NCBI GenBank assembly: GCA_040397215.1
Contig: JBBAWK010000001.1
Length of the DNA: 64,000 nucleotides
From: Candidatus Limnocylindrus sp.
GTDB taxonomy: Bacteria > Chloroflexota > Limnocylindria > Limnocylindrales > Limnocylindraceae
Strand: one strand, 5' to 3'
The position numbers and the translations under genes are program-made. Of this stretch, positions 11,427 through 53,920 are shown in pieces. The notes beneath the pieces are model-generated. The model was not told the origin of the DNA. It did no database searches and saw only the letters and a program-made list of their open reading frames with translations. How positions within the stretch are numbered: position 1 is the first letter of the stretch; each line of letters starts with the position of its first letter.

Positions 11427-11468
11427 CAAGATCGCGCCAAACGGCGCGCCGGCGGGTTTGTCAGTCAA

Positions 11469-14659: not shown

Positions 14660-14663
14660 GTGG

Positions 14664-15704: not shown

Positions 15705-15709
15705 GGCGG

Positions 15710-16750: not shown

Positions 16751-16759
16751 GTGCGCAGA

Positions 16760-19605: not shown

Positions 19606-19744
19606 TGCAATACTTCACCTCGTCCCAAACACGCTCCCAGCGCTTGCGCCACTGGAACGGTCGGCCGCACACCACGCAAATCTTTTCTGGGCGTTCGCTC
19701 GGCGGTCGATGCGGCTGCCGTGGTTCACGTCGTGCGCCGCCCAC
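19577..19744 (-). CDS. DUF2256 small Cys4 zinc-ribbon protein
   Basis: C-terminus [34 protein letters not shown] matches DUF2256. GTG at 19744 (2 nt after the CPD photolyase stop) is the only plausible start. 55 aa. Overlaps the next gene's start by 29 nt. Confidence 0.6.
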
Positions 19745-19746
19745 AG

Positions 19747-21228
19747 CTATTGGCCACTCTCTGGCTTCAGCGCCGCGCTGTACGCCGCAAGCGTTCGTTG
19801 ACGCGCCTCGGCGTGATCGACGATCGGCCCTGGATACTGTTCGCCGAGGGTGATCCCGGCCTCTGCAAGCGCCTTTGGATGCGCCCACGGCGCATGGATC
19901 GCGGGCGCTTGCAGAGCTGCAAGCTCTGGCACCCAGCGGCGCACATATTCACCATCGGGATCAAAGTTTCCCGCCTGCGTCACCGGATTGAAGATGCGGA
20001 AGTACGGTTGCGCATCAGTGCCACTCCCCGCACACCACTGCCAGCCACCATTGTTGGCGGCAATATCACCGTCGACAAGATGTCGCAAGAAGTGCGCCTC
20101 CCCCTCACGCCAATCAATCAGCAGGTCTTTTGTTAGGAATGATGCGGTGATCATGCGCGCGCGGTTGTGCATGAAGCCGGTCGCTGCGAGTTGGCGCATC
20201 CCTGCATCAACAACGGGGTAGCCGGTCTTGCCGCTTTTCCACGCCTCCAGTAAGCGCTGATCGCTGCTCCACTTGATTGCGTCGTAGCTTGGACGCCACG
20301 CGCTGCTCGCGGCATGCGGCGCGTGCCAAAGCACCTGTGTATAGAAGTCACGCCAGGCGATCTGGCTCACCCAGACTCGCTCACCAGATCGTTCACCCTC
20401 TTGCACTGGCGGTAGTGGAAGTTGTCGCACAACAAGTTCACGCGCGGAGAGGAGCCCAATATGCAGCGCCGCCGAGAGGCGGCTAGTTCCAGAGTTGTCG
20501 GCCAACGTGTTGCGCCGGTCTGCATACTTGTCAATTGATTTGCGCCACGCATCGGCGTATTTGCGCGCAGCGCGTTCACCTGGCACAGGGAGTTGATCAA
20601 TCTGCGCGGTTGGCACCGCATGCGCATCAAGGAGCGTCCGATCAACGGTGGAAGTTGGAGTTGGTGTTGGTAGTGGTGGAAGCTTCTTCGGCGCTGGGAG
20701 TGGCGCGCTCGCGTCAACCTGCTCGAGCCATCGGCGGAAATACGGCGTGTAGACGCCGTATGGTGTGCCGCCACCGGTCAGCAACTCCTCTGGCTCCACC
20801 ACAACGAGGCCACGCTTCGCATGCAGTTTCACGCCGAGTGGTGTGAGCAGATCCGCAACGGCGTGATCGCGCTCTCGCGCGAACGGAGTGTGGTCGCGCG
20901 TCATGAAGAGGTCAATTTCTCCAGTGCCGCCTGCGGCACGCAACTCGCTAACCAACAGTGGGAGTGCGGTAGTGGCTGGCCCCTGCAGTTCAATGAGGTC
21001 CGAGCCGATGGCGCGCAGGCTGGCGGCGAGTTCTGTGACGCTCTCGCGCAGGAACCAGGTGCGGTTGGCGCTCGACAGCTTGCCAGTAATGAGGCCGGGT
21101 TCCCAGATGAAGATCGGCAAGAGGGGTGCGCCCCGCTCCTTGGCTGCTGCCACCGCCGCCACCAGTGCGGGGTGATCGGCAAGGCGAAGGTCTCGGCGGA
21201 ACCAAAGGATCACTGGGGGGTGTGGCAT
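19747..21228 (-). CDS. phr: Deoxyribodipyrimidine (CPD) photolyase, class I / CRY-DASH-like
   Basis: [13 protein letters not shown]...[15 protein letters not shown]...WREGE...[24 protein letters not shown]. Start set to the internal [18 protein letters not shown] (21228); the ORF is open up to 21327. Confidence 0.85.
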
Positions 21229-21347
21229 CGTCGGTAGATCATCGCACCTTACCCGCGCCGCGGGGCTCCCTCTCGGGGCGGTGACGGGGTACGATCCCCC
21301 CGCCGTGCGTTGCCCGGCAGCATCCAAGCAACCGAGAGCGGGGGGCT

Positions 21348-35637: not shown

Positions 35638-36573
35638 CTAGGCGCGGAACGCCTTTCGGGTCATCTCAATGAATCGCTCGCGATCAACGCGATAGACCAC
35701 CCGGCAGTTCGGCTCGCGCTTCGTGTTGCCCAGGTGATCAACGATGGTTTGTCCGCGCTCATGTCCAAGGCCGAGCGACACCTCAACACGAAGGTGCGCT
35801 TCGCTGGTCGCGATGTCGGGCTCAAGCGCCACCGCCATGGCGATTGGATCTGGCCAGTCAAAGCCCTTCAGCTTTGATGACTCTTCGCAGAACTTTCGCA
35901 AGGCGCGCTGAATGTCGATGCTGTACTGGCCGAGCGGCCCGAGCGCGCGCAGCTCTGCAGCAAGATCATCCTCAATGACCGCGTCGGCCACAGAGACATC
36001 CCAGCCGACCATCTCCACCTTCATGCCGGACTCTAAGACGATGTGCACCGCCTCTGGGTCGACCCACCAGTTGAATTCGGCGAGCGGCGTGATGTTGCCA
36101 GGGAGCACGCCCGTGCCGCCCATGATCACGCAGCGCTTCACCCAGCTAGCGAACTTTGGTTCAATGCGAATGGCGATGGCAAGGTTGGTGAGCGGGCCGA
36201 GCGCGACGAGTTCTAGCTCGCCTGGCTCTTTGCGGAATGCGTCGATCATGGCGTGTACCGCGTCGTTACTTGTTGCTTTGCGGCCCTTCAGCGGTAGTCC
36301 GATGTCACCCATGCCGTCGGCGCCGTGCACATGCTGCGCAGTGGCAAACGCCCGCACGAGCGGCATCTCAGCACCGGCATGTAAGGGAATGCTCTTGCCG
36401 CACAGTTCAACGGTGTAGAGGGCGTTTTGCACGCCGAGCTCCACCGGAACATTGCCGATCACAACCGACATGCCAACGACTTCGGTGTTCGGATGCTTTA
36501 GTGCCATGACGATCGCCACGACGTCATCTGAGGCAGTATCGGTATCGATCCACATGCGGCGGGTTGGGCTCAT
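35638..36573 (-). CDS. Nucleoside hydrolase (IUNH family)
   Basis: N-terminal aspartate cluster WIDTDTASDDVVAI (DxDxxxDD). Start at internal ATG 36573, which avoids overlap with the upstream gene. Confidence 0.8.
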   Translation of the reverse strand: MSPTRRMWIDTDTASDDVVAIVMALKHPNTEVVGMSVVIGNVPVELGVQNALYTVELCGKSIPLHAGAEMPLVRAFATAQHVHGADGMGDIGLPLKGRKATSNDAVHAMIDAFRKEPGELELVALGPLTNLAIAIRIEPKFASWVKRCVIMGGTGVLPGNITPLAEFNWWVDPEAVHIVLESGMKVEMVGWDVSVADAVIEDDLAAELRALGPLGQYSIDIQRALRKFCEESSKLKGFDWPDPIAMAVALEPDIATSEAHLRVEVSLGLGHERGQTIVDHLGNTKREPNCRVVYRVDRERFIEMTRKAFRA

Positions 36574-36602
36574 GCGCGCATCGTATCTGCTGCTCGAACG
36601 GA

Positions 36603-37598
36603 TTAGTTGCGGCGTTCTGAAAGCGCGGCGGGGTCGGCCTGCCACGGTCGAATCCCCTCGGCGAGGAGCAGATTCTCGCGATCGAGATGTGCGGCGAGCA
36701 GGGTGAGGCGTGCCAGCGCATCAGGGGCTTCGAGGAGCGCTTGGCGCTGCTCAAGGCTCAGCTGCACAACACCGCCAACCACGTGCGAGAGGCCGACCGG
36801 ATCGTCGCTCCCTGAGAGTCGATCGATGGCCGTAGCAAGTAGTTCGCCATCAGGGTCACCCTCGTCGTCGGGAGACTCGTCATCGCCAGTGTTGTATTCG
36901 GTGATCTTGGTCGGCCCAACTGCAGTGTTTGACGCCACAAGGAGACGCTCGATCTCAGAGACCACCTCTTGGCTGAGTGCCGCACCCTGCTCCTCTTCGA
37001 GCGCCTCGGTAATCGCTTCGGGGGTTACCTCATCGTCCTCGATGAATTCGCCCTCCTCCTCTTGATCGTCGTCGTCATGGTCGTGATCGTGCTCCCCCTC
37101 ATCGACGCCGCGCAGCAGCTCAAGATAGTCAATGAACAAATCAGAGACGCGCTCCGCCGTGGCGCGCACGCGCTCAGCCGATTCGCCCACCGCCTCGTCG
37201 AGGAGCTCGATCTCGGCCTGTAGATATGGGGCACTGCGATCAAAGTTCGTAACGCGGAAGCGCTGCGTGCCGAGCCCCACGATGTCCCAGCGCCCATCGA
37301 TGTAGCGCGTCGCCTCGCGAATCTCGGCGAGGGTGCCGATCTCAGAGAGGCCGTCGTTTCCGGAGCGAATCACCCCGAATGGCTGGTTGAGTTCAAGGCA
37401 GCGCTTCACCATCAGGCGATAGCGCGGTTCAAAGATATGCAGCGGTAGGGCAACGCCAGGGAAGAGAACGAGTTGTAGCGGGAAGAGCGGGATCAGTTTC
37501 GGCGCGTCGCCGTTCTGCTCCAGGTCAGTGGCTGCAGGCCGAGGCCTGTCCCGCCGAATCCGCCGTGCGGAAGCTGGAGCCGCAGCCGCAGCCGCCAA
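36603..37598 (-). CDS. LON N-terminal substrate-binding domain protein with poly-acidic insertions
   Basis: LIPLFPLQLVLFPGVALPLHIFEPRYRLMV is a Lon-N domain. Acidic tracts EGEHDHDHDDDDQEEEGEFIEDDE and GDDESPDDEGDPDGE. Start uncertain (74-nt overlap with the iscA-like gene). Confidence 0.65.
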   Translation of the reverse strand: MAAAAAAPASARRIRRDRPRPAATDLEQNGDAPKLIPLFPLQLVLFPGVALPLHIFEPRYRLMVKRCLELNQPFGVIRSGNDGLSEIGTLAEIREATRYIDGRWDIVGLGTQRFRVTNFDRSAPYLQAEIELLDEAVGESAERVRATAERVSDLFIDYLELLRGVDEGEHDHDHDDDDQEEEGEFIEDDEVTPEAITEALEEEQGAALSQEVVSEIERLLVASNTAVGPTKITEYNTGDDESPDDEGDPDGELLATAIDRLSGSDDPVGLSHVVGGVVQLSLEQRQALLEAPDALARLTLLAAHLDRENLLLAEGIRPWQADPAALSERRN

Positions 37599-44256: not shown

Positions 44257-45042
44257 TTACGCTCCCGCGGCGCGGTCTCGGGCGATCAACAGGCGCAGTC
44301 CGTGTACGGCCGTGTCGATCACCGGATCAATCGAGAAGTTCTTCATTGAGGCCTGTGACTCCTCGTGCGTCATGGAGGGGCTGCCGACGCAGACCATGAT
44401 GCCGCCCGCGCGTGCGCGCAGGGTTGCCGCAACGATGAAGAGGGTGGCCGACTCCATCTCAGAGCTGATCGCACCGCCGCCGATCCAGGCCTTCCATCTT
44501 CGTGCGAGGTCGTCGGCCACCGGCATGCGCCCTGGCTCAACTTCGCCATAGAACGAATCCTTTGACTGCGCCACGCCAACGCGGTGGCGAACGTTGCGCT
44601 CGCGGGCCGCATCACGCATGGCCAGCACCACATCAAGATCGGCTACGGCGGGAAACTCCATCGGCAGGTAGTGACTGCTCGTCCCCTCGTCGCGAATCGC
44701 ACCGCTGATCACCGCTAGGTCGCCGGTCTGCATCCCTGGCTGCATGCCGCCCGAGGTCCCCACGCGAATAAACGTGTCGGCGCCAATGGCGTGCAACTCT
44801 TCGGCGGCGATCGCCGTTGAGGGGCAGCCGATCCCAGTTGAGGTGCATGCCACCGGTACGCCATCAAGCTCACCGACCCAGGTGGTGTACTCACGCTTCT
44901 GCGCCACGAATCGTGGGTTATCGAATCGGCGGGCAATCACCTCGACGCGACCAGGGTCACCTGGCAGCAGCACGTAACGACCAACATCGCCCTTCTTTAG
45001 GCCAAGGTGGTGAACGGTGCCGTCTGGTTCAAAGAGTGCCAT
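44257..45042 (-). CDS. udp: Uridine phosphorylase-family nucleoside phosphorylase (PNP/UDP-1), paralog A
   Basis: 261 aa, close to E. coli Udp across its length: HLGL, LLPGDPGRVE, REYTTW, ELDGVPV, CTSTGIGCPSTAIAAEEL, EFPAVAD, EMESATL. Confidence 0.8.
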   Translation of the reverse strand: MALFEPDGTVHHLGLKKGDVGRYVLLPGDPGRVEVIARRFDNPRFVAQKREYTTWVGELDGVPVACTSTGIGCPSTAIAAEELHAIGADTFIRVGTSGGMQPGMQTGDLAVISGAIRDEGTSSHYLPMEFPAVADLDVVLAMRDAARERNVRHRVGVAQSKDSFYGEVEPGRMPVADDLARRWKAWIGGGAISSEMESATLFIVAATLRARAGGIMVCVGSPSMTHEESQASMKNFSIDPVIDTAVHGLRLLIARDRAAGA

Positions 45043-45049
45043 ACGAGGA

Positions 45050-45943
45050 TTATGACGTGATCAGCGCGCGGATGGCGATGAACATCACGCCGACGAAGAC
45101 GATGATGCCGAAGAGGAACATCGCCGTCGCCACGAGGGGATCGAACTGCAGCGGCGTCGAGGCGCTCTGCCCCCAGTTCGCGAGCCCATACACCGTAAGG
45201 GCCGACATTGTGGCAATGCCGAGCACCCCTACGAACAGATCAAATGGCCCACTCGGCACGCGACGATACGAGGTCTTTACGCCCTTGGAGCCAAAGGCGC
45301 GTGACTCAAGGCTGATCGCGAGCTGCTGCACACGCTCAACAGCACCAGCTGCAACTGGCACAAACGATGGCACAATTGAGCCGAAGCCGGTCCCCTTCAT
45401 GCCGCGTGATCGCTGTGCCGCCAAGACGAGTTGCACTTCGCGCTGCAACACCGGAACAAGCTGGAGCGTCATGGAGATCATGAAGTTGATCAGATATGGC
45501 ACGCGCATACGTGCAAGCGACGCAAAGAGATCAGATGGGTGTGTTGTCAGGATTAGTGCGAATGCCATCGTTTGGAATGAGGCGACACGCAACATCAGTG
45601 AGATCGCATGCGAAAGTCCTTCGGTATAGATATGAAATGGGCCGACTGCAAGCGGAGTTCCGCAATGGTTTCCGCAAATTGCAGGAGCCAGCGATTGAAT
45701 CACAATAATTGATGCTGTGATCGGCGTAAAGATCACAAGGATCTTCGCGAGTGGCTTGATGATCTTCGATGTTAAGGCGATGACGATCGAGAAGAGGAAG
45801 ACCGCAAGCAACGGCAGCGGCGAATACGTGGTGAAGCAGAAGATTCCAGCCGGGAGCAGCCAGGCAAACTTCGCCACGGGGTCGAGGCGGTGCATCCATG
45901 AGGTTCCACGAACGTGGCTTACTGAGACGCTCGGTCCGTACAT
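45050..45943 (-). CDS. ecfT: ECF transporter transmembrane (T) component EcfT
   Basis: 297 aa CbiQ-family membrane protein with the conserved Arg-containing coupling motifs. Confidence 0.85.
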   Translation of the reverse strand: MYGPSVSVSHVRGTSWMHRLDPVAKFAWLLPAGIFCFTTYSPLPLLAVFLFSIVIALTSKIIKPLAKILVIFTPITASIIVIQSLAPAICGNHCGTPLAVGPFHIYTEGLSHAISLMLRVASFQTMAFALILTTHPSDLFASLARMRVPYLINFMISMTLQLVPVLQREVQLVLAAQRSRGMKGTGFGSIVPSFVPVAAGAVERVQQLAISLESRAFGSKGVKTSYRRVPSGPFDLFVGVLGIATMSALTVYGLANWGQSASTPLQFDPLVATAMFLFGIIVFVGVMFIAIRALITS

Positions 45944-46779
45944 TAGGCAGCTCCCATCTTCTTGCCACCAAGCTCAGCGGAGAGTTCAGTAACGCTCAGC
46001 GACGCTGGCCTACCCTTGCGGCTCTTCAGGCGCAACGAGATCTGCGTGACCTGTGGTGGCGCAATGTGCGTGCGCTCCATCACTTCGGTGTTCCCGAAGA
46101 CTTCGCGGGCACCACCGTCGGCAATGATCTTTGCGTTCCACATCACGATCATCCGCTCGCTCACGTCGGCCAAGAGCGGCATATCGTGGGAGACACAGAT
46201 CACCGTTGAGCCACGATCCTGCAGCCGATGAATTAACTGGTTGATCACCTTGGTGGTCTGATGGTCCTGGCCGGTGGTCGGCTCGTCGAGCACGAAGACC
46301 TTCGGGCCCATCGTGAAGACCGAGGCGATCCCCACCAACTTGCGCAGCGGGAAACTCAGTCGGTAGGGATGCATGTCGGCATACTGTTTGATGTCGAAGA
46401 ATTCCAGCGCGTGCGCGATCCGTTCGGCGATCTCTTCGGGTGGCAGCTTCAGGTTTGTTGGGCCGAAGGCCAACTCCGCCGTCACCGACGGGGCGAAGAG
46501 CTGGTGGTTCGGGTTCTGGAAGACGTAGCCAACCGTCGACGACATCTGCTGCACGGAATTCTTCGCCGTGTCCTTGCCGTCAACCACGATGCTCCCCGAG
46601 GTTGGCTTCAGCAGACCGTTCAACAGCTTGGTGAGTGTGGTCTTCCCTGAGCCGTTTTGACCAACGATGCCGACCGACTGCCCCTCAGGGATCTCGAGGT
46701 TGACGCCATCAAGTGCGAGTACCGCGCCGTTTGAATACACATAACGTGCGTCGGTGACCTTAATCAACGGCGTGCTCAT
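45943..46779 (-). CDS. ecfA2: ECF transporter ATPase EcfA2
   Basis: 278 aa ABC ATPase ([19 protein letters not shown]). Overlaps ecfT by 1 nt. Confidence 0.85.
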   Translation of the reverse strand: MSTPLIKVTDARYVYSNGAVLALDGVNLEIPEGQSVGIVGQNGSGKTTLTKLLNGLLKPTSGSIVVDGKDTAKNSVQQMSSTVGYVFQNPNHQLFAPSVTAELAFGPTNLKLPPEEIAERIAHALEFFDIKQYADMHPYRLSFPLRKLVGIASVFTMGPKVFVLDEPTTGQDHQTTKVINQLIHRLQDRGSTVICVSHDMPLLADVSERMIVMWNAKIIADGGAREVFGNTEVMERTHIAPPQVTQISLRLKSRKGRPASLSVTELSAELGGKKMGAA

Positions 46780-47621
46780 GATCGCGCCTCCAACCAGGTC
46801 ACGGCTTGGTCCGTGGTGACGGGAAGATCCTTCGCACCTGCGGGCGCAAGCGAGAGTGCCAGTTCCGTTGCCTGTGGCACACGTAATCCGATCTTGGCAA
46901 GTTCGGCGCCGCGCGAGAAGACTTCGCTCGGCGTACCAATCATCACGATCTCTCCCTGGTGGAGCACGACAATGCGATCGGCGTAGGCGGCAAGAACTTC
47001 GGCTTCATGCTCGGCAACGATCACCGTCATCCCCTCTTCGCGATTCAATTTACGGGCCAGCTCAAACACCTCCTCCTTGCCGATCGGATCAAGGTTTGAG
47101 GTTGGCTCATCCATGAAAAGAATCTTTGGCTGCATCGCAAGCACCGATGCGATCGCGAGTCGCTGCTGCTGACCGCCCGAGAGACCCATTGGTGAGCGCT
47201 CCTCAAAGCCGGCGAGTCCAACGGTGCCGAGTGCCGCGCCAACGCGCGGTGGCATCTCTTCATTTGGAACGCCAAGGTTCTCTAAGCCGAGAGCGACCTC
47301 TTCGGCGGCACTCACCTGGCTCATCTGAAATTCAGGGTTGTCAAACACAATGCCAACGGTGCGCGCCATCTCGCGCACGGGGGTGGTGGAGGTGTCGAGC
47401 CCCTCAACGGTGACGTTCCCCTCGTAGATGCCCATCGTGGATTGCGGAACGATGCCGTTAATGGAGAGGCCGAGCGTTGTCTTGCCCGCACCGTTAAGTC
47501 CCATGATGCCAAGGTATTCGCCGCGCTTAATCTCAAGATTGATCTTGTTCAGTGCCGGCTTCTCACCACCGGAATAGGTGAAGCTGAGATTCTCAATCTT
47601 GACGGCGATCTCTCCAGCCAA
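46776..47621 (-). CDS. ecfA1: ECF transporter ATPase EcfA1
   Basis: 281 aa ABC ATPase (GLNGAGKTTL, LSGGQQQRLAIA, MDEPTSNLD). TTG start with GGAGG 5 nt upstream. Confidence 0.85.
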   Translation of the reverse strand: MAGEIAVKIENLSFTYSGGEKPALNKINLEIKRGEYLGIMGLNGAGKTTLGLSINGIVPQSTMGIYEGNVTVEGLDTSTTPVREMARTVGIVFDNPEFQMSQVSAAEEVALGLENLGVPNEEMPPRVGAALGTVGLAGFEERSPMGLSGGQQQRLAIASVLAMQPKILFMDEPTSNLDPIGKEEVFELARKLNREEGMTVIVAEHEAEVLAAYADRIVVLHQGEIVMIGTPSEVFSRGAELAKIGLRVPQATELALSLAPAGAKDLPVTTDQAVTWLEARS

Positions 47622-47673
47622 TGTGACCTCCTACCTCTCTTCGATGATCCTGTGAGATGCAGTGTGTAGCGAA

Positions 47674-47707
47674 CCGCCCGATCGCACTATGCGGTGCGAC
47701 CGGGCGG
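47674..47707 (-). other. 14-bp stem-loop in the 120-nt spacer between the small ORF and ecfA1
   Basis: ccgcccgatcgcac-tatgcg-gtgcgaccgggcgg. On the minus-strand RNA the single mismatch becomes a G·U pair. No downstream U-tract. Confidence 0.4.
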
Positions 47708-47740
47708 CTGTCGCGCTCGTCATCGCGACGATTTAACTGT

Positions 47741-47956
47741 TCAGTCCTTTGCGCGAATAACGGCGACGCCTGCGCCAAGCGTAAAGAGGCCTGCAAGCAC
47801 ATTCATTGCTGCAAGCATCGGGAACGCCTGGTCAGGTGCATCGATCTTGATAGCGCTTGCGGCGAACGGCAATGCGATCACGAAGATACCCATTGCAATT
47901 ACGCCGACAGCTGCGGCCTCACGAGGCCCAACCGTTGCTCCAGTATCTTTTGCCAT
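47741..47956 (-). CDS. Small (71-aa) two-TM membrane protein co-transcribed with the ECF S-component
   Basis: ATG preceded by AAGGAGGAG at a 6-nt spacing; starts 12 nt after the S-component stop. Sequence MAKDTGATVGPREAAAVGVIAMGIFVIALPFAASAI... Confidence 0.5.
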   Translation of the reverse strand: MAKDTGATVGPREAAAVGVIAMGIFVIALPFAASAIKIDAPDQAFPMLAAMNVLAGLFTLGAGVAVIRAKD

Positions 47957-47968
47957 GATTTCTCCTCC

Positions 47969-48658
47969 TTACGCTGGCTTGATCTGGCTGTATACGTACA
48001 GCAAGATGACGATGCCAACGCCAAGTCCAACGAGCACCATCTTGAGCGCGCCGCTCTGGTCAGTTTTCGGAAGGCCAACGCCAGCCGTAAGGCCAGATGG
48101 CAACGCTCGAAGAATGGCAAGGCCGATGAACGTTGCAATCAACTTGTCGGCGGTCGAACCTGGAAGGCCGCCGAGGAATGAGGCTGCAAGCACACCGGTG
48201 CCGCCTGAGGCGAGCGCCGCCACGAGCGCGTCCGAGGAGTGCCCGGTGGCACCACCGAAGACGAATGTAATGATTGGCGCAGCCATTGCCTGAACGGCAA
48301 TACCGCAGATCACTCCAACGGCAATCAAGCCTGGGAGCGACTTGCCGAGGCCGAAGTTACGGATACCGTAACCCCAGACGAGGGCGCCAACGACGTTACA
48401 GAGCGCGAACGGAATCCCAACGGGACCGTTGACCAATGAGCCAGCGGTGTTCGTGATGATTCCGGTGAGGGCGCCCCACCAAGGTCCGAGCGCGACGCTC
48501 ACGACCATGGTCCCGATCATGTCGAGGAAGATCGGTACGTTTACGAGCTTGATAATGAATCCGCCGACGATGTTGAGGGCCGCCATCACTGGCACAAGGA
48601 CCGCAACGTACGAGAGCGGGATTCGCTGGGCGGCGCGTGCCGCTGCTGCTCCTGACAT
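47969..48658 (-). CDS. ECF transporter substrate-specific (S) component, substrate unknown (nucleoside/queuosine-type suspected)
   Basis: Internal ATG at 48658 (MSGAAAARAAQRIPLSYVAVLVPVMAAL) with GGGAGGAA SD. 229 aa, about six TM helices, Gly-rich like ECF S-proteins. The N-terminal 79 aa of the track ORF lie in the leader. Confidence 0.6.
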   Translation of the reverse strand: MSGAAAARAAQRIPLSYVAVLVPVMAALNIVGGFIIKLVNVPIFLDMIGTMVVSVALGPWWGALTGIITNTAGSLVNGPVGIPFALCNVVGALVWGYGIRNFGLGKSLPGLIAVGVICGIAVQAMAAPIITFVFGGATGHSSDALVAALASGGTGVLAASFLGGLPGSTADKLIATFIGLAILRALPSGLTAGVGLPKTDQSGALKMVLVGLGVGIVILLYVYSQIKPA

Positions 48659-48767
48659 CTCTGTTCCTCCCTTTCGTCGGTCCCCACTCAGAGAGCCGAC
48701 CTGTTTCGCCTGGGGTGACAACGTCACCCTTGGCTTTACAACCAAACGGCAACCCGCCGTTGCGCGC

Positions 48768-48795
48768 ACGTTATGCTTCCTTAACCTGTTGTCAA
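48768..48795 (-). promoter_or_regulatory. Candidate sigma-70-type promoter for the S-component operon (TTGACA-16 nt-TAACGT on the minus strand)
   Basis: Hexamers read by eye in the 249-nt divergent intergenic region. Predicts a ~105-nt leader containing three GC-rich hairpins. Confidence 0.3.
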
Positions 48796-48907
48796 GCCCC
48801 TGATGCGTCAGGCGAGTCAGCGACCGAGGGGTTGCGGCAGTGGGCTTCGGGGTATGGTCTCCCCCTTGGGGAGCGCGGGCCAGGGGGCCCATCACGAGGA
48901 GGCATTC

Positions 48908-49915
48908 ATGCGAGGGAAGTGGTGGTCGAACCCGATTCTGAGCTCACTGACCCCAGTGGTTGAGGGTTCTGGGTTTGTTACAACAAACGAGGGGGAGGTC
49001 CGGCGGGTGGCGACGTGGATGGCCGCCGAGGAGTTCCCCGACTTCCGCTCCACCGCCCCAGCTGCGAAGAGCCCCTTCGACATCGGCTCCGACCCCGACA
49101 AGAACATCGACCTCACGATGCTCATCGCCATCCTCAACTTCGCCTTTACCGACTTCGCCACCTCCAAGAAGTTCGAAGTCACCTATAACGGGGTCCGCTA
49201 CTCCGACAGCGAGGCGATGTTCGCCTGCCTGCACAAGGCGATCCTGGCTGGGCAGCCAATCCTCACCGGCCAGTGGGCCGCAGGGGTCACTCGCCGCGAC
49301 CTTGAGGAGCTCTTCCGTGGCGACAACGAGATGCCGATGCTCGATGAGCGAGTCGTGGCACTCAATACGGTCGGCGCCGCCCTAACCGAGAAGTACGACG
49401 GGAAGTGGCACCGCTGGGTCGCTTCATGTGCGCCCGCCCTGTACGCCGGTGGCGATGGGCTGTTGGAGCGACTCGTCACTGAGTTCCCACGCTTCGACGA
49501 TTTGAGCGACTGGAAGGGGCACAAGATCCAGATTCAGAAGCTCTCGCAGCTTGGCTTGTGGGGCTTGCACCGTGGCCTAGCCCCACTCGGTCGCACAGTG
49601 CTGAAAGATCCAGAGATGTGCACGGCGTTTGCCGACTACATCGTGCCGGTCGCACTGCGCACCATGGGAATCTTTCAATACGAAGCATCACTGGAGAAGC
49701 GGATTATGGCTGGCGAAATGATCCAGCGAGATTCACTTGAAGAGATTGAGATTCGTGCGCACAGCATCTATGCAACAGCGCTCCTCACCGACGAGGTGAA
49801 CGCGCGACGACCAGCCGATAAGCAGCTGCTGATTCCGGAGGTTGACTACCGACTCTGGAAGACGTATCACGCGACGCACTATCCGCACCATCTAACGCGA
49901 ACGATCATGTACTAA
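48908..49915 (+). CDS. DUF2419 / Q_salvage-family protein (Qng1-like queuosine-nucleotide N-glycosylase homolog)
   Basis: ATG at 48908 with GAGGAGG 6 nt upstream. 335 aa. C-terminal region FADYIVPVALRTMGIFQYEASLEKRI...SLEEIEIRAHSIYATALL resembles the conserved FADYRVPQ...EEVEIRxxS block I recall for DUF2419/QNG1 (not database-verified). Confidence 0.5.
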   Translation: MRGKWWSNPILSSLTPVVEGSGFVTTNEGEVRRVATWMAAEEFPDFRSTAPAAKSPFDIGSDPDKNIDLTMLIAILNFAFTDFATSKKFEVTYNGVRYSDSEAMFACLHKAILAGQPILTGQWAAGVTRRDLEELFRGDNEMPMLDERVVALNTVGAALTEKYDGKWHRWVASCAPALYAGGDGLLERLVTEFPRFDDLSDWKGHKIQIQKLSQLGLWGLHRGLAPLGRTVLKDPEMCTAFADYIVPVALRTMGIFQYEASLEKRIMAGEMIQRDSLEEIEIRAHSIYATALLTDEVNARRPADKQLLIPEVDYRLWKTYHATHYPHHLTRTIMY

Positions 49916-49917
49916 CG

Positions 49918-51141
49918 GTGTCGAAGAGGCCACGCGGCGCACGTTCGCTGCCATTCGCTGATGTTCTCTCGCTAGATGGCGCTGTCGTCACATCACTCGG
50001 TGGGCTGATTGCACGCGCGCCCGTCGCCATGGTGCCGATCGGGCTGATTGCAATCGGTAGCGGAGCGTTGAACTCCTACGCCGTTGGTGGCGCTGCTGCT
50101 GGCGCCTTCTCTATTGCAAACGCGGTTGGCGCAACGCTGATTGGTCGATCGGCTGATGAGCAGGGGCATCAACGAACACTAATTCGTGCGACCGCTGTGA
50201 TGCTCGTTGCCGCAGCGGCGATCACTGCCGTGGCACTTGCGGCGCCTGAAGCGGTCTTACTGATTGCAGCATCGGCGCTTTTCGGCGCTGCAACGCCAAA
50301 CATCGGCTCGATCATTCGTGCGCGTTGGACCGCTGTGGTGAAAAGCGGACCACTGCGACTCCGTGCCATGGCACTAGAGTCTGTGAACGATGAGGTGAAC
50401 TTCCTGATCGGTCCACCGCTTGCATCACTCCTGATTGTGCAAGGGCTCCTCTGGGGGCCCATCGCGGTCGCCGCGCTCCTATCGCTGATCGGGCTCATTG
50501 CCGTGTTGTCGCAGCGAAAGTGGGAGCCGGCGCTGCACGCACCAGATGCTGCGGGCATGGCTGGGGCGATTCGAGAAAACGGGCTGCTCATTGTGAGTGC
50601 GGCTGGAATTGGTTTGATCCTCGGTTCAAGCCAGGTGTTACTACTTGGATACTGCACGGCAATTGGTGCGGCGACCGGCATTGCGCTGGCTCTTGGATTG
50701 AACTCTGGAGCAAGCCTCGTTGGTGCAATTCTCATCGGCGCAAAGAGCGATTGGCGCTGGTCGGCGGAGCGGCGATTCGCCGTGGCCGCGATCTTCTTCG
50801 CACTTGTCACGATCCCTACGGCGCTCGTTGACGGTTACGTGCCGTACCTGATTGTCACGACAATCGCGGGCTTCGGCATCGCACCGATGTTTATTCAGAT
50901 CAATGCGGCGGTCGCAGAGCGAGCCGGTGGTTCTGCTCGAAGTGGTGCATTTGCCCTCATCGGTGGTGGTGTTGTGTTCGGCATCTCTGCCGGTTCGGCA
51001 ATCGGTGGCGTAGCGATTGACGCGGCTGGGGCTTCGGATGCGCGGCTGGTTTTGATCCCGCTGGTGCTCCTGATGGTGCTCCCGATCCTGCTTGGAGCTC
51101 AGCGCGCCGAGAAGCGCCCGACCCGCTCCGCAAAGCGCTGA
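49918..51141 (+). CDS. MFS transporter
   Basis: 407 aa, twelve TM helices; starts 2 nt after the DUF2419 gene. Confidence 0.75.
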   Translation: MSKRPRGARSLPFADVLSLDGAVVTSLGGLIARAPVAMVPIGLIAIGSGALNSYAVGGAAAGAFSIANAVGATLIGRSADEQGHQRTLIRATAVMLVAAAAITAVALAAPEAVLLIAASALFGAATPNIGSIIRARWTAVVKSGPLRLRAMALESVNDEVNFLIGPPLASLLIVQGLLWGPIAVAALLSLIGLIAVLSQRKWEPALHAPDAAGMAGAIRENGLLIVSAAGIGLILGSSQVLLLGYCTAIGAATGIALALGLNSGASLVGAILIGAKSDWRWSAERRFAVAAIFFALVTIPTALVDGYVPYLIVTTIAGFGIAPMFIQINAAVAERAGGSARSGAFALIGGGVVFGISAGSAIGGVAIDAAGASDARLVLIPLVLLMVLPILLGAQRAEKRPTRSAKR

Positions 51142-52109
51142 AGGAAGGCCTCGCCGTCGCCGGCTATGGCGACGCGGCTGTTCGCTGGGGTGTTGGTGCG
51201 GCCCCGCACATCCACGAGAAGGTCTCCCTGCGTGATCCCCTCACGCGTCTCAACGGCGCTCGGCGCACTGATGATGGTTGCAAGCCCTGCATCAAGCGCC
51301 ATCGCCACGGTGAAGGCGTCGTGAATGTGTGACCCCTCGATCTTGTCGTACTGCAGGTGGAACTCGTCGTAGAAGCGCAGCGCCTCGTCGATTAGGCGCA
51401 AGACCGGGTTGAGTGTGGCATCGCCGCGCTGTGCGCCAACACGGCCGGCTGCGGCAACGAGTGCCGCCCAATGCGGCGGTCGAATGAGTGCCGACTCTGT
51501 GGCATCAAGTGGCAAGATGAGCGCGGGTCGGCCCGCTGCAGCACAGGCGCGAATCACCTCGTCAAGTGCCTCAGGGTCACACCAGGCGTTCCACTCACTG
51601 CGCGCACCAGTGTTCCCTGGAGTTGCAACAGCGCCAGTCATCAACACCACGTCGTGTAAGAGCGTCGGTAGCTCGGCGTCAATTCGGAAGGCGGCGGCAA
51701 TGTTGGTGGCCGGCGCGCAGCCGATGATCGTCACGGCGCCAGGATGACGACGCACCTCGGCAACGATGCGCGCGGCAGCGGCGTTCGTGCCATCGGCGGA
51801 GGGGGTGCTGAGCGCGCGTGATAGCGCAGGGAGAACGGCGTACCCAAGACCAGTTGGCCCGTGTGTCTCTGGTGTGGTGACCAGCGCCTTCACGAGCGGC
51901 GTACGAGCGCCGGCGATCACGTCGATGTGCGACGCACCCGCAACGTCGAGCACGCCACGCGTGTTGCGCACGACTGCTTCGAGGTTAACGTTCCCTGGTG
52001 CACAGGTTGCAACGAGCAGCTCGGCATCGGGTGATGCGAGTGCGTAGAGGAGCGCCATTGCATCATCGATGCCCGTGTCGACATCGAGGATGAGTTTCTG
52101 CTGTGGCAT
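51099..52109 (-). CDS. Nucleoside hydrolase (IunH/RihA-like; cf. QueK)
   Basis: 336 aa with the calcium-binding aspartate cluster LILDVDTGIDDAMAL at the N-terminus. Confidence 0.85.
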   Translation of the reverse strand: MPQQKLILDVDTGIDDAMALLYALASPDAELLVATCAPGNVNLEAVVRNTRGVLDVAGASHIDVIAGARTPLVKALVTTPETHGPTGLGYAVLPALSRALSTPSADGTNAAAARIVAEVRRHPGAVTIIGCAPATNIAAAFRIDAELPTLLHDVVLMTGAVATPGNTGARSEWNAWCDPEALDEVIRACAAAGRPALILPLDATESALIRPPHWAALVAAAGRVGAQRGDATLNPVLRLIDEALRFYDEFHLQYDKIEGSHIHDAFTVAMALDAGLATIISAPSAVETREGITQGDLLVDVRGRTNTPANSRVAIAGDGEAFLQRFAERVGRFSAR

Positions 52110-52120
52110 GCGCGCGAGCG

Positions 52121-52909
52121 CTACTTGATGCGGCCGGCGGCGCGATCCGCCGCAATGAGCTTGCGCAGGCCCGCGATTGACGTATCGATCACGCGATCAA
52201 TCGATGAGTCGGCAAGCTCTGCCTCGGTCATTGGGCGCTGATCTGGATTGCCAAGGATCAACATTGCGCCGCCTGCGCGCACGCGCAGCGTTGCCGCAAC
52301 GATGAAGAGCGTTGCCGCCTCCATCTCGGAGCAGATTGCGCCACCTGCCATCCATGCCTTCCAGCGACGCTGCAGGTCCTCGGCGATCGGCATGCGCTCG
52401 GGATTGTGCTGGCCGTAGAACGAATCCTTTGACTGTGCGATGCCAACGTACCAAGGGAAGCCGCTCTCCTTCGCCGCCTCACGCAACGCGAGTGTGATGT
52501 CGAGATCGGCGACCGATGGGAACTCCATCGGTAGGTAGTGGCGACTGGTGCCTTCGTCGCGAATGGCGCCGCTAATGATCCCAACCGAGCCCGGCTTGAT
52601 GTGGTGCTGCATGGAGCCCGAGGTGCCGACGCGAATGAAGGTGTCAACGCCAACGTCTGCAAGCTCTTCTACAGCGATCGCCGTCGATGGGCAGCCGATG
52701 CCGGTCGAGGTGCAGGCAACAGGCACGCCGTCGAGTTCACCCGTCCAGGTGGTGTATTCGCGGCGGCGCATCAGGAACTTCGGGTTGTCAAAGCGGCTGG
52801 CGATGACCTCAACGCGATCCGGGTCGCCTGGGAGCAGCACGTAGCGGCCAACCTCGCCGTTGCGAATACCAATATGGTGCTTGCGGCCGTCGCTCTCGGT
52901 TGCTGCCAT
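52121..52909 (-). CDS. udp: Uridine phosphorylase-family nucleoside phosphorylase, paralog B
   Basis: 262 aa with the same Udp motif set as paralog A (roughly 70-75% identical by eye). Start overlaps the ribokinase stop as ATGA. Confidence 0.8.
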   Translation of the reverse strand: MAATESDGRKHHIGIRNGEVGRYVLLPGDPDRVEVIASRFDNPKFLMRRREYTTWTGELDGVPVACTSTGIGCPSTAIAVEELADVGVDTFIRVGTSGSMQHHIKPGSVGIISGAIRDEGTSRHYLPMEFPSVADLDITLALREAAKESGFPWYVGIAQSKDSFYGQHNPERMPIAEDLQRRWKAWMAGGAICSEMEAATLFIVAATLRVRAGGAMLILGNPDQRPMTEAELADSSIDRVIDTSIAGLRKLIAADRAAGRIK

Positions 52910-53844
52910 CAGCGCGTTCCTCTCACTAGATTTGGTGCGGCGAGTTTCGCCGCCTCTTCTTTCGAAATGTAGCTGCTCTGTGTGCCTGGCTTCTGCACGC
53001 TCTCTGAGGCGCAGGCTACGGCAAGTTCTGCCGCCCGAACAGGGGTGAGGCCACTGGCCAGACCGAAGGAGAAGGCGCCGAGGAACGAGTCGCCCGCCCC
53101 GGTCGTGTCGACCACGGTCACCTTCGGCGCGCTCACGCGCTGAAGGGGCTGACCACGCTCGGCGATTGCGGCACCGTAGCCACCGAGGGTCACCAGCAGG
53201 TTGACGCCGCTCTTCGCTGCGGCGGCAAGGATGCGCTCGTCGGCACCGTCGCCAATCGCCGAACCGCCGAAGAGGGTCGTGAACTCCATCTCGTTTGGCG
53301 CGAGCCAGTCCGAGAGGGCGAGGAGCTCAGGTTCGATGGGTGCGGCGGGGGCTGGGTTGAGCAGGGTGGTGATCCCCGCAGCACGTGCCGCGCGGAAGGC
53401 GGCGAGCGTTGTTGCTTGTGGAATCTCGAACTGGCCCACGACAATGGTTGGCTTGAAGTCGCGAATGGCCGCCTCGGCGACGGCTGGGTCGGTCTCGTTG
53501 TTGGCGCCGGGGACGATGATGATGCGGTTGATCCCATTCGCGTCGACCCAGATCGGCGCCACGCCACTAGAGCCTGGAACGGTGCGCATCCAACGCGTGT
53601 CGATCCCCTCGCGCACAAAGTTCGCGAGATGTGAAGCGCCGTACGCGTCGTCACCGACGGCGTTGACCATGGCGACGGGGGCGCCGAAGCGCGCCGCCTG
53701 CACCGCCTGGTTCGCCCCCTTCCCGCCGAAGCCCATCTGGAAGCGATCGCCGACCAGGGTCTCACCCGCATTGGGGATGACCTTGGCGTACGAGATCAGG
53801 TCCATCATGGTGCTGCCGACGACGAGAATGCGAGCGCTGCTCAT
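52909..53844 (-). CDS. rbsK: Ribokinase (PfkB family)
   Basis: Internal ATG at 53844 (MSSARILVVGS) with GGAGG SD. FGGKGANQAV and DTTGAGDSF motifs. 311 aa. Confidence 0.85.
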   Translation of the reverse strand: MSSARILVVGSTMMDLISYAKVIPNAGETLVGDRFQMGFGGKGANQAVQAARFGAPVAMVNAVGDDAYGASHLANFVREGIDTRWMRTVPGSSGVAPIWVDANGINRIIIVPGANNETDPAVAEAAIRDFKPTIVVGQFEIPQATTLAAFRAARAAGITTLLNPAPAAPIEPELLALSDWLAPNEMEFTTLFGGSAIGDGADERILAAAAKSGVNLLVTLGGYGAAIAERGQPLQRVSAPKVTVVDTTGAGDSFLGAFSFGLASGLTPVRAAELAVACASESVQKPGTQSSYISKEEAAKLAAPNLVRGTR

Positions 53845-53920
53845 AGAGCCTCCGTGCTGGGTAATTTGCTGTGGGGAGTCTACCGCCATCAGGGTTGGCG
53901 GTTGGCTGGGTTCCCGCCTG

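Follow-up and report, generated by a model that had tools for sequence, protein, structure and literature searches.

The window analysed here is a stretch of 64,000 nucleotides of DNA from Candidatus Limnocylindrus, a freshwater member of the Chloroflexota. The gene of interest is named QNG1L. The genes and features around it are as follows.

44257..45042, minus strand: uridine phosphorylase-family enzyme 1 (TIGR01718 280.3 bits, equal to the cut-off; PNP_UDP_1)
45050..45943, minus strand: ECF T-component, CbiQ family (Pfam CbiQ, E 7e-24)
45943..46779, minus strand: ECF ATPase, EcfA' (Pfam ABC_tran, E 5e-29)
46776..47621, minus strand: ECF ATPase, EcfA (Pfam ABC_tran, E 3e-27)
47744..47956, minus strand: small conserved membrane ORF of 71 aa, between the S-component and EcfA genes (tblastn)
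47969..48658, minus strand: ECF S-component, CD3073-like family, distantly FolT-like (NCBIfam NF045596; Pfam ECF_trnsprt, weak; PDB FolT)
48659..48907, no strand: conserved divergent spacer of 249 bp (alignment; RNAalifold)
48896..48902, plus strand: Shine-Dalgarno sequence GAGGAGG (sequence; conserved in orthologous loci)
48908..49915, plus strand: QNG1L, predicted Qng1-like (PF10343) N-glycosidase gene of a divergent subfamily, 335 aa (Pfam, PDB match, AF2 and Foldseek, residue mapping)
49918..51141, plus strand: MFS_1 transporter, 407 aa, first possible start a GTG 2 nt past the QNG1L stop (Pfam MFS_1; pairing and spacing conserved)
51099..52109, minus strand: IU-type (RihA-like) nucleoside hydrolase (Pfam IU_nuc_hydro, E 5e-72; NCBIfam RihA/UriH/RihC below their cut-offs)
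52121..52909, minus strand: uridine phosphorylase-family enzyme 2 (TIGR01718 276.5 bits)
52909..53847, minus strand: ribokinase-like PfkB kinase (Pfam PfkB, E 3e-61; TIGR02152 ribokinase 280.6 bits, cut-off 299.65)

The QNG1L reading frame runs from an ATG (48908-48910) to a TAA (49913-49915). The longest frame possible would begin at 48803. This start is disfavoured because the homologues are also 335 aa long and the extra 5' stretch is not conserved as coding sequence. The Shine-Dalgarno sequence is positioned 5 nt before the ATG and was kept in 12 of 13 orthologous loci. Hence, the open reading frame and the strong ribosome-binding site pointed out in a preliminary description of this DNA are both real. 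The block quoted there, TAFADYIVPVALR...EEIEIRAHS, occupies residues 239-286 of the translation. The combination of reading frame, family match and locus layout is far beyond chance.

QNG1L is a true relative of Qng1, in both family (Q_salvage/DUF2419, PF10343) and fold. The protein matched PF10343 with an E of 2e-49 and 169 bits (cut-off 25), over profile positions 7-285 of 285. The closest relatives in the PDB were the S. thermophilus enzyme (E 6e-30) and human QNG1 (E 1e-26). An AlphaFold (AF2) model had a pLDDT of 83 and a pTM of 0.83, and was poor at residues 313-335, which are part of the active site. Using Foldseek, the two-lobe HhH-like Qng1 fold was found in this model. Matches to 7U1O, 7U07, 7UK3 and 7UGK had E values of 2e-17 to 3e-16 and TM scores of 0.77-0.81. 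Thus, the Qng1 homology claimed in the preliminary description is upheld by the profile search and by comparison of the predicted structure with the Qng1 crystals (TM about 0.8). Identity to the known enzymes (S. thermophilus 7UK3, 7U07, 7U1O and 7U91; human QNG1/C9orf64 7UGK) is 26-27%. The same description called the bacterial members largely uncharacterised, but the best-characterised Qng1, that of S. thermophilus, is bacterial. Some relatives of QNG1L are named 'queuosine salvage family protein' by NCBI. Literature searches yielded nothing on the QNG1L subfamily, nor on queuosine in Limnocylindria.

Apart from Qng1, MagIII, MutY and TAG are distant structural relatives. Genes for photolyases and a DNA ligase are likewise present in the window, at a distance of about 14 kb or more from QNG1L. 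That QNG1L is an HhH-superfamily glycosylase acting on DNA (or RNA) is nonetheless highly improbable. Foldseek matches to DNA glycosylases were weak (E 0.13 or worse, TM below 0.3), and neither StQng1 nor HsQNG1 acts on tRNA (PMC9881137). In QNG1L, the enclosed mononucleotide-type active site and the C-terminal carboxylate are conserved, and the conserved neighbours function in transport and nucleoside catabolism, not repair. The same low probability applies to a non-catalytic binding protein; the catalytic residues are all invariant.

We mapped the residues of QNG1L onto S. thermophilus Qng1 (St numbering) using phmmer, a profile search against the PDB, MAFFT and hhalign. All of the methods agreed, and hhalign gave a probability of 100% and an E of 5e-66. 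The kept residues are N72, F75, K199, I203 (Leu in QNG1L), D231, Y232, E267, D298, W302, H316 and the C-terminal Tyr. The changes are P46T, W48P, H53D, D69A, R80K, Y93S, W94E, S206W, D207G, K233I and W299Y. QNG1L also has a 3-residue insertion after F80.

The pattern was compared across a clade of 119 relatives with 55-95% identity, from Chloroflexota, Acidimicrobiia, acI Actinobacteria and some Gammaproteobacteria. Kept positions were invariant in all 119, except N72 (Asn in 109, Asp in 10). Conversely, the canonical residue was found in no relative at any changed position. Instead, D69 was replaced by A/T/S/N/G/E, Y93 by S/T/A and D207 by S/T/G/M/I/A, and the Trp at 206 was invariant. Thus, the residue pattern is fixed across the clade.

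The kept residues include the nucleophile of the HhH motif, Asp231 (D243 in QNG1L), and Lys199 (K211), as well as Phe75 and Tyr232, which wall the ribose. In Qng1 the carboxylate of the C-terminal Tyr, held in place by E267 and H316, completes the active site, and tags at the C-terminus inactivate the enzyme. The C-terminus of QNG1L reads ...TRTIMY, and E279 and H328 (St E267 and H316) are invariant. The clamp on the 7-deazaguanine ring, formed by D298, W302 and an aliphatic residue at 203, is present as D313, W317 and L215, and all three are invariant in the clade.

Three functional sites of StQng1 are affected. [quoted passage not shown] N72 is kept in QNG1L (N77), but D69 is A74 and D207 is G219, and no clade member has Asp at either position. 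In the cyclopentenediol pocket, P46, W48, H53, Y93, W94 and W299 are replaced by T49, P51, D58, S101, E102 and Y314. The Y93 and W94 columns are ungapped and well anchored; W48 and H53 lie beside an indel, yet three alignment methods concur. Acidimicrobiia have Leu rather than Glu at position 94. In the 5'-phosphate pocket, Y232 is kept, R80 is K88 and K233 is I245 (Ile in 116 of 119 relatives). The Q306 position falls within an indel region, where Lys or His is placed opposite it depending on the method. R274, R315 and K88 are new invariant basic residues of the clade, which might rebuild a phosphate site.

Alanine substitution of D69, N72, D207, D231, Y232 or K233 compromises StQng1 function (PMC9881137). 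Human QNG1 retains D69, N72, Y93, W94, D207, D231 and Y232, with Arg at 233, and our alignment shows that the canonical signature is kept from human to bacterial Qng1. Only about 10 of 100 cluster representatives near the QNG1L query had this signature. For the preliminary description, loss of catalytic residues was one of the outcomes that would speak against its proposal. The outcome is divided: the nucleophilic Asp and the HhH Lys remain, but D69, D207, K233 and the whole side-chain pocket are replaced.

Under that proposal, QNG1L would be a Qng1 of the usual kind, cleaving queuosine or queuosine-5'-monophosphate to provide queuine. The significant PF10343 match, the fold and the NCBI names agree with this, as do the Asp nucleophile, HhH Lys, Asn72, base clamp and C-terminal Tyr, and the QPTR-like neighbour of some loci (below). 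Even so, this activity is distinctly unlikely. Three residues (D69, D207 and K233) at which substitution compromises StQng1 in vivo are naturally replaced, and so are all five aromatic or His residues of the side-chain pocket, which canonical Qng1 keeps. The setting also differs. P0238, a bacterial Qng1 that has the canonical signature, is encoded directly upstream of a TGT gene in 4 contigs. For other representatives, the contigs of P0265 and P0228 were too short to reveal gene context, and that of P0141 gave nothing informative. Conversely, tgt was not detected within about 10 kb of QNG1L, either in the window or in any of 80 QNG1L loci. Two TGT probes were used: E. coli Tgt (42% identity, E 2e-114, to the real TGT of locus L082) and the L082 TGT itself. 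Furthermore, at least 5 Limnocylindria MAGs have two QNG1L paralogues per genome, more than would be expected of an enzyme devoted to one micronutrient. Hence, family and fold stand, and the assignment to queuosine fits poorly with the recognition residues and the neighbourhood.

The gene directly downstream encodes an MFS protein, which matched Pfam MFS_1 with an E of 4e-14 and 52.6 bits (cut-off 33.4). NCBIfam matches were weak, there were no PDB relatives, and no subfamily was assignable. The two-gene unit with 2-nt spacing seen in the preliminary description was confirmed. A 'stop-NN-GTG' arrangement occurred in 9 Limnocylindria orthologues, with 'TAG-GCGC-ATG' in two more, and pairing with an MFS gene recurred in two phyla (26 of the 58 loci with enough downstream DNA). 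Clustering of Qng1 with MFS genes has been reported previously (PMC11130926).

In 14 Limnocylindria loci a QPTR-like gene is found directly 3' of QNG1L, at the syntenic position of the MFS gene. This distant member of the QPTR/YhhQ family (COG1738) scored 51 bits with QPTR/Vut_1 PF02592 (cut-off 27) and 44 bits with TIGR00697, below the cut-off of 51. To our knowledge, every characterised QPTR/COG1738 member carries preQ0, preQ1 or queuine. The preliminary description considered both export and import of the released base. Replacement of the MFS gene by one of an importer-type family argues slightly for import by the MFS protein.

The remainder of the neighbourhood is also conserved. Ribokinase was the commonest neighbour in the 80 loci (40), followed by uridine phosphorylase (36), MFS (31), IUNH (31), BMP/PnrA-type ABC genes (12-20), QPTR-like genes (14) and ECF genes (11-13). 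In the window, the nucleoside hydrolase gene is convergent with the MFS gene and their 3' ends overlap by 43 bp. In Actinomycetota, QNG1L is inside a BMP/PnrA nucleoside ABC operon with the order LacI-Bmp-ATPase-permease-permease-QNG1L-(Nuc_deoxyrib_tr)-MFS-IUNH-UP-UP and a divergent ribokinase gene. Here Bmp is the SBP, and QNG1L is a conserved extra member that is always paired with MFS. We know of no general BMP/PnrA nucleoside locus that includes a Qng1-fold enzyme.

The pyrimidine-oriented neighbours, two uridine phosphorylases and a RihA-like hydrolase, could indicate that QNG1L cleaves a different N-riboside in pyrimidine nucleoside catabolism. This might be pyrimidine-derived or ring-opened, such as ribosylurea, in the manner of URC4 (DUF1688). 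URC4 acts in uracil catabolism. Some clade members had a borderline DUF1688 match (25.8 bits, cut-off 25). Other non-canonical PF10343 clades are found beside DeoC, HD and CDA-fold deaminase genes, or fused to deaminase or GNAT domains. The PF10343 fusions were to GNAT (P0122), a CDA-fold deaminase (P0140) and Cu-oxidase (P0199); they may be gene-calling or assembly artefacts and we gave them no weight. We consider a pyrimidine-type substrate very unlikely. The DUF1688 signal is marginal, and the strictly conserved D298, W302 and L203 recognise a 2-amino-6-oxo purine-like ring, which points to a guanine-like base.

Upstream of QNG1L is a complete, dedicated group I ECF module of S-component, two EcfA ATPases and EcfT (CbiQ). 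The S-component did not match the QueT or QrtT families. Its best model was the CD3073 family (NF045596, 104 bits), below the cut-off of 180, and it matched FolT in the PDB with an E of 7e-7. QrtT is CD1683 (PMC11477304) and, hence, CD3073 represents a different, uncharacterised family. The 71-aa ORF matched no Pfam family. With tblastn it was found in 17 loci that have ECF genes, and identity fell to 36-41% in the more distant Chloroflexota. The C. difficile queK-qrtT-queL operon similarly places an N-glycosidase gene beside an ECF S-component and an IU-family nucleoside hydrolase. However, the QNG1L locus lacks the QueL radical-SAM lyase and the preQ1 riboswitch. Its S-component is CD3073-like and FolT-related rather than QrtT or QueT, and it adds the EcfAA'T module, ribokinase and uridine phosphorylases.

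The minus strand of the divergent spacer carries a candidate -35 element, TTGACA (48795..48790), and a structured leader for the S-component gene, with hairpins at 48745-48761, 48708-48734 and 48676-48700. In the RNAalifold analysis, G-U pairs were valid on the minus strand only, and compensatory changes occurred in the third hairpin. Conserved structure in the spacer is thus mainly that of the minus-strand ECF leader. The plus-strand QNG1L leader had weak structure and an unfavourable covariation term, and we do not propose a riboswitch there. Rfam searches of the whole window at gathering thresholds gave no match. Between 47500 and 49100, with E up to 1, there were two chance-level matches only, and seven related loci contained only tRNAs and glycine riboswitches, far from QNG1L. 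Thus, neither a preQ1 nor a purine riboswitch was found near QNG1L in the window or in these seven loci. The preliminary description inferred a promoter shared with, and co-regulation with, the S-component gene. QNG1L is genuinely linked to the ECF system, since in loci L050 and L072 it is the first gene of a same-strand ECF operon. The divergent layout makes co-regulation plausible. However, scanning 47500-51400 revealed no sigma-70 consensus; terminator-like matches were at chance level.

We give about an even chance to QNG1L being a Qng1-fold N-glycosidase, of a distinct subfamily, that acts in nucleoside scavenging on a non-queuosine, guanine-like nucleoside or nucleotide. The analysis establishes the family, the fold, the clade-wide residue pattern and the conserved neighbourhood; catalysis, the class of base, the direction of transport and the choice between nucleoside and nucleotide are what we infer. 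The enzyme would be cytoplasmic. Asp243 would serve as the nucleophile or stabilise an oxocarbenium, Lys211 and the carboxylate of C-terminal Tyr335 would hold the ribose, and Asn77 would complete the retained bond-breaking machinery. Asp313, Trp317 and Leu215 should grip a 2-amino-6-oxo edge, as the Qng1 clamp does with 7-deazaguanine. The Asp69/Asp207 relay and the aromatic pocket for the aminomethyl-cyclopentenediol arm of queuosine are lost, W218 probably fills part of the space, and the phosphate-binding Lys233 is Ile. Because bond-breaking and base-clamp residues are kept, and the arm pocket and Lys233 are lost, the substrate is most likely a guanine-like ribonucleoside, possibly a 5'-nucleotide, and not queuosine. 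Nucleosides would enter via the adjacent ECF system, or BMP-type ABC systems in Actinomycetota. QNG1L, the two uridine phosphorylases and the IU-type hydrolase would then cleave them, and ribokinase would capture the ribose. Movement of the base would fall to the MFS protein co-transcribed with QNG1L or, in sister lineages, to the QPTR/COG1738-type transporter encoded at the same position.

Some observations run against a non-queuosine substrate. The deazaguanine-clamping residues are kept and a QPTR/COG1738-family gene directly follows QNG1L in 14 loci. Hence, the substrate may be a 7-deazaguanine compound, even queuosine in another binding mode. In addition, with less bulky side chains at Y93 and W48, the pocket could be larger rather than closed.

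A narrower version of the favoured reading is salvage of a smaller 7-deazaguanine. Here, preQ1, preQ0 or a related base would be freed from a nucleoside or nucleotide of tRNA or phage-DNA debris and would feed the bacterial TGT, with the MFS or QPTR-like protein importing the same free base. We regard this as possible but unlikely. The invariant D298, W302 and L203 are consistent with it, and a smaller 7-substituent would suit an enzyme in which the cyclopentenediol pocket is lost and S206 has become Trp. The new acidic residues E102 and D58 could bind a primary amine, but position 94 is not acidic in Acidimicrobiia. The QPTR/Vut_1 gene in the MFS place is also in keeping with this version, and there is precedent. 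A transporter encoded beside Acidobacteriota qng1 unexpectedly carried preQ0/preQ1, not queuosine, and a Bartonella MFS protein encoded next to tgt carries preQ1/preQ0 (PMC11130926). The COG1738 family is, however, a heterogeneous one, and other purines may be among its substrates (PMC5372724). Against salvage for TGT are the lack of tgt or que genes within about 10 kb in the 80 loci, the lack of a preQ1 riboswitch or other Rfam element near QNG1L, and neighbours that are mostly general nucleoside-catabolic (ribokinase, uridine phosphorylases, IUNH and BMP ABC).

Returning to the favoured reading of a non-queuosine N-glycosidase, we tentatively suggest, with the chances somewhat against it, a new specificity of the Qng1 fold. 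The substrates could be ribosides of preQ1/preQ0, or a different modified guanosine released from nucleic-acid debris. The MFS or QPTR-like protein would be the dedicated transporter of the base, and the ECF S-component would be of a new, nucleoside-specific type. If so, the name 'queuosine salvage protein' would be mistaken for most of the prokaryotic proteins that bear it. An undescribed scavenging route would then exist in Limnocylindria, acI and Acidimicrobiia, which are among the most abundant of the streamlined bacteria in freshwater and sponges.

PF10343 proteins are routinely named 'queuosine salvage protein', and the large and phylogenetically broad QNG1L clade lacks the queuosine-recognition residues. 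The capacity for queuosine salvage inferred from PF10343 in metagenomes is probably overestimated, since canonical residues occur in only about one in ten representative clusters near QNG1L. The clade is found in very abundant streamlined aquatic bacteria, in loci for nucleoside uptake and ribose recycling, and QNG1L points to an extra step in the scavenging of dissolved nucleosides. The CD3073-like S-component, the MFS protein and the distant QPTR are candidate partners in this step. QNG1L may be a natural experiment, in which the Qng1/HhH scaffold has been retuned to a new base.

The gene at 48908-49915 (plus strand) of the window, which has a G+C content of 62.5%, encodes 335 aa and ends with TAA (49913-49915). 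As noticed earlier, it is preceded by GAGGAGG (48896-48902). A longer reading frame from an ATG at 48803 is disfavoured; homologues are nearly all 335 aa, and indels in the upstream alignment break the frame. The window is best matched by MAGs from Candidatus Limnocylindrus and Ca. Aquidulcis, both Chloroflexota of fresh water (class Limnocylindria), where the protein is up to 97% identical.

The product matches Pfam PF10343 (Q_salvage) across the entire model (E 2e-49); NCBIfam has no model for it. The nearest solved structures are Sphaerobacter thermophilus Qng1 (StQng1; E 6e-30) and human QNG1 (E 1e-26). An AlphaFold2 model, made with 20 relatives as input, had a pLDDT of 83 and pTM of 0.83; its quality was poor at residues 313-335. 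The model superimposed on the two structures with TM 0.77-0.81. The coordinates, family match, PDB matches and superposition confirm the preliminary description of a Qng1/DUF2419 homologue. That description also held bacterial members to be largely uncharacterised, and here it erred; the bacterial StQng1 is the reference enzyme. The folds ranking after Qng1 were HhH DNA glycosylases, at E 0.13 or worse. A DNA glycosylase, or a protein that is no enzyme, is scarcely credible.

D231 of StQng1 acts as nucleophile or stabilises the oxocarbenium ion. The ribose is positioned by K199 and the carboxylate of C-terminal Y323, itself held by E267 and H316, and is walled by F75 and Y232 (Hung et al., 2023, PMC9881137). 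The 7-deazaguanine is clamped and read by I203, W302 and D298. The general acid, N72, belongs with D69 and D207 to a network described as 'strictly conserved', which begins at the secondary amine of the queuosine (Q) side chain. The cyclopentenediol pocket consists of P46, W48, H53, Y93, W94 and W299, and the 5'-phosphate is bound by R80, K233 and Q306. Alanine at D69, N72, D207, D231, Y232 or K233 compromises complementation (PMC9881137).

We mapped the divergent Qng1-like subfamily to which the window protein belongs (QNG1L) onto StQng1 using phmmer, a profile against the PDB, MAFFT and hhalign. All four agreed; hhalign of the clade profile against a canonical Qng1 profile gave 100% probability and E 5e-66. 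The window protein keeps N77, F80, K211, L215, D243, Y244, E279, D313, W317, H328 and the terminal Y335. The changed positions are listed below; by profile comparison with the PDB, human QNG1 retains the canonical residues.

Residues of StQng1 and their replacements in the window protein
P46, replaced by T49
W48, replaced by P51
H53, replaced by D58
D69, replaced by A74
R80, replaced by K88
Y93, replaced by S101
W94, replaced by E102
S206, replaced by W218
D207, replaced by G219
K233, replaced by I245
W299, replaced by Y314

Across 119 relatives (55-95% identity), only N72 varies among the kept positions (N in 109, D in 10), and none has a canonical residue at the changed positions. W206 (StQng1 numbering) is invariant in the same set and I233 occurs in 116 of the 119. 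The pattern recurs in 78 genome-derived QNG1L copies. We also surveyed 100 full-length representatives of 50%-identity clusters. Only about 10 carried the canonical signature D69/Y93/W94/D207/[KR]233, and the window signature (S/T93, W206, I233) marked one clade, extending to about 44% identity. Judged from these alignments, the residue pattern is clade-wide and no oddity of one sequence. By the refuting criterion set in the preliminary description, the claim that this protein is Qng1 was half refuted: the glycosidic-cleavage chemistry appears preserved, but the residues for queuosine recognition are replaced and that recognition is predicted to be lost.

Neither the window nor any of the 80 loci compared below yielded a TGT gene with two probes. 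A genuine bacterial Q-salvage pair provided a positive control; the gene for P0238, a bacterial protein with the full canonical signature, immediately precedes a TGT gene (PF01702) on four independent contigs (L082-L085; e.g. L082:223-2462). QNG1L shares its fold and catalytic core with Qng1, but its Q side-chain pocket and K233 are lost, and ordinary cleavage of queuosine or Q-5'MP is unlikely. Elsewhere in PF10343, another non-canonical clade (P0153) adjoins genes for DeoC, HD and CDA-fold deaminase proteins (L089:5319-6996). That setting points to a family that is nucleoside- or nucleotide-catabolic overall, with Qng1 one specialised branch. The same is hinted at by further PF10343 members fused to GNAT (P0122) or CDA-fold deaminase (P0140) domains, fusions that may be artefacts, and by borderline DUF1688 (URC4-like) matches of some QNG1L members.

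The genes around QNG1L in the window are as follows.

Neighbouring features in the window
44257-45042, second uridine phosphorylase, after the CbiQ-type T component gene
47744-47956, minus strand, 71-aa membrane ORF, apparently two-helix, between the S-component and first EcfA genes
47969-48658, ECF S-component, upstream of and divergent from QNG1L; best model 'CD3073 family putative S component'
49918-51141, plus strand, MFS_1 transporter; first GTG 2 nt past the QNG1L stop
51099-52109, IU-type nucleoside hydrolase (Pfam/NCBIfam), convergent with the MFS gene; 3' ends overlap by 43 bp
52121-52909, uridine-phosphorylase-family enzyme (Pfam/NCBIfam), convergent with the MFS gene
52909-53847, ribokinase-like PfkB kinase (Pfam/NCBIfam), convergent with the MFS gene

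The last three form an operon convergent with the MFS gene. The divergent ECF importer is complete and dedicated, with S-component, 71-aa ORF, two ABC ATPases and CbiQ-type T component. Its S-component scored 104 bits against the best model, under the cut-off, and is distantly FolT-like by PDB comparison. The 71-aa ORF belongs to no Pfam family; it is conserved across 17 loci with ECF genes, at identities down to 36-41% in distant Chloroflexota, and may encode an additional subunit of this ECF system. Given the importer and the hydrolase, phosphorylase, kinase and MFS assignments, 44.2-53.9 kb reads as a locus for taking up and cleaving nucleosides. Upstream of it by 12 kb, the gene for a second IU-type nucleoside hydrolase (35638-36645, minus strand; Pfam E 2e-89) adjoins one for a LON substrate-binding-domain protein. 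Separately, 13616-17989 (minus strand) encodes in tandem three paralogues of the phosphotriesterase family (PF02126; 346-354 aa), then an MFS transporter; adjoining this cluster, 18034-21327 encodes a DNA photolyase and a protein related to photolyases.

We compared 80 loci from Limnocylindria and other Chloroflexota, Acidimicrobiia (including sponge-associated Spongiisociaceae), acI Planktophila and other Actinomycetota, and a few Gammaproteobacteria. ORFs were clustered and cluster representatives annotated. QNG1L neighbours were ribokinase (40 loci), uridine phosphorylase (36), an MFS protein of the window's family (31), IU nucleoside hydrolase (31), BMP/PnrA-type ABC transporter genes (12-20), LacI regulator (15), QPTR/Vut_1 (COG1738) protein (14) and ECF genes (11-13). 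The MFS gene lies directly 3' of QNG1L in 26 of the 58 loci whose downstream DNA extends 1 kb or more. The Actinomycetota operon runs LacI, Bmp SBP, ATPase, two permeases, QNG1L, MFS, hydrolase and two uridine phosphorylases, with ribokinase divergent. In acI-type members, the start of a nucleoside 2-deoxyribosyltransferase-like gene (PF05014; L077 and L078, about 10980-11430, also L068 and L080) overlaps the QNG1L stop (TAATG) and precedes the MFS-hydrolase-phosphorylase-phosphorylase genes.

Sister Limnocylindria (L023, L031, L038 and others) share the window's upstream flank: ORF clusters c10, c6 (no Pfam family) and c15 (a third conserved ORF), DMT_YdcZ and isocitrate dehydrogenase. Here the ECF system is absent, and a distant QPTR/YhhQ-family (PF02592) gene occupies the syntenic position of the window's MFS gene. 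Such a gene is directly 3' of QNG1L in L023 (10997-11557), L031, L038 and 11 more loci. With the same flank and a QPTR-like gene in place of MFS, we read the swap as a case in which one base transporter has displaced another, non-orthologous one. At least five Limnocylindria MAGs have a second QNG1L paralogue of about 63% identity (pairs L004/L017, L006/L018, L015/L019, L012/L020 and L021/L026), with Asp for Asn72 and Ile at position 207. In L018, L019 and L026 it adjoins a different MFS gene, with no ribokinase or phosphorylase nearby.

QNG1L has kept its catalytic and ribose-binding residues and the clamp that fits a 2-amino-6-oxo purine-like ring, and the association of its gene with those for nucleoside import, further nucleoside-cleaving enzymes, ribokinase and secondary transport is conserved. 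We give an even chance to a glycosidase of a guanine-like ribonucleoside other than queuosine; a chemically different riboside as substrate is very unlikely. Such a glycosidase would hydrolyse the N-glycosidic bond of this nucleoside, or possibly of a 5'-nucleotide, since new invariant Arg and Lys residues could rebuild a phosphate site. Freed ribose would be phosphorylated by ribokinase and the base carried by the MFS or QPTR-like transporter. Because QPTR proteins are importers, QNG1L and transporter may be two routes to one base: free-base import and release from imported nucleoside. In C. difficile, queK-qrtT provides two routes to the same base, as free base and as imported nucleoside (PMC11477304). 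Within or beside the guanine-like reading, a dedicated role in preQ1/preQ0-type 7-deazaguanine salvage is possible, if doubtful. Support comes from the QPTR neighbour and from a result published as a surprise, that a transporter beside an Acidobacteriota qng1 carries preQ0/preQ1, not Q (PMC11130926).

The 249-bp spacer between QNG1L and the S-component gene is strikingly conserved in alignment.

Features of the spacer
48795..48790, minus strand, perfect TTGACA, ahead of the S-component leader
48745-48761, 48708-48734 and 48676-48700, minus strand, three hairpins of the ~100-nt S-component leader (48659-48800 region)

G-U pairs in the hairpins fit the minus strand only, and the third hairpin has compensatory changes, in a comparison of only 10 closely related sequences. 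The leader has no Rfam match and could be a new cis-regulatory RNA. The plus-strand QNG1L leader gave no convincing consensus structure. Tandem glycine riboswitch aptamers occur 6-10 kb downstream of QNG1L in L012 (20048-20264), L015 (18914-19126), L023 (16501-16715), L031 and L038, preceding glycine dehydrogenase (GcvP) in the last three; none was detected in the window.

Co-regulation from a shared divergent promoter, as first proposed, is plausible from the gene layout and from Chloroflexota loci L050 and L072, where QNG1L is the first gene of a same-strand ECF operon; however, a consensus scan found no sigma-70 promoter. The reported 2-nt spacing to the MFS gene was found, is conserved in Limnocylindria and, with the conserved lack of an MFS Shine-Dalgarno sequence, is compatible with translational coupling.

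Clustering of Qng1 and MFS genes has been reported at Pfam level (PMC11130926). Our literature search found no paper that sets the QNG1L clade apart or singles out its residue pattern or its setting among nucleoside-catabolic genes. As two defining features of Qng1 are absent, the window protein is, on sequence grounds, a PF10343 member with the Qng1 fold and not Qng1 sensu stricto. Paralogous specificity within this fold would not astonish a specialist. Even so, the QNG1L clade is large, ecologically prominent and probably mis-annotated, and its substrate is directly determinable by experiment.
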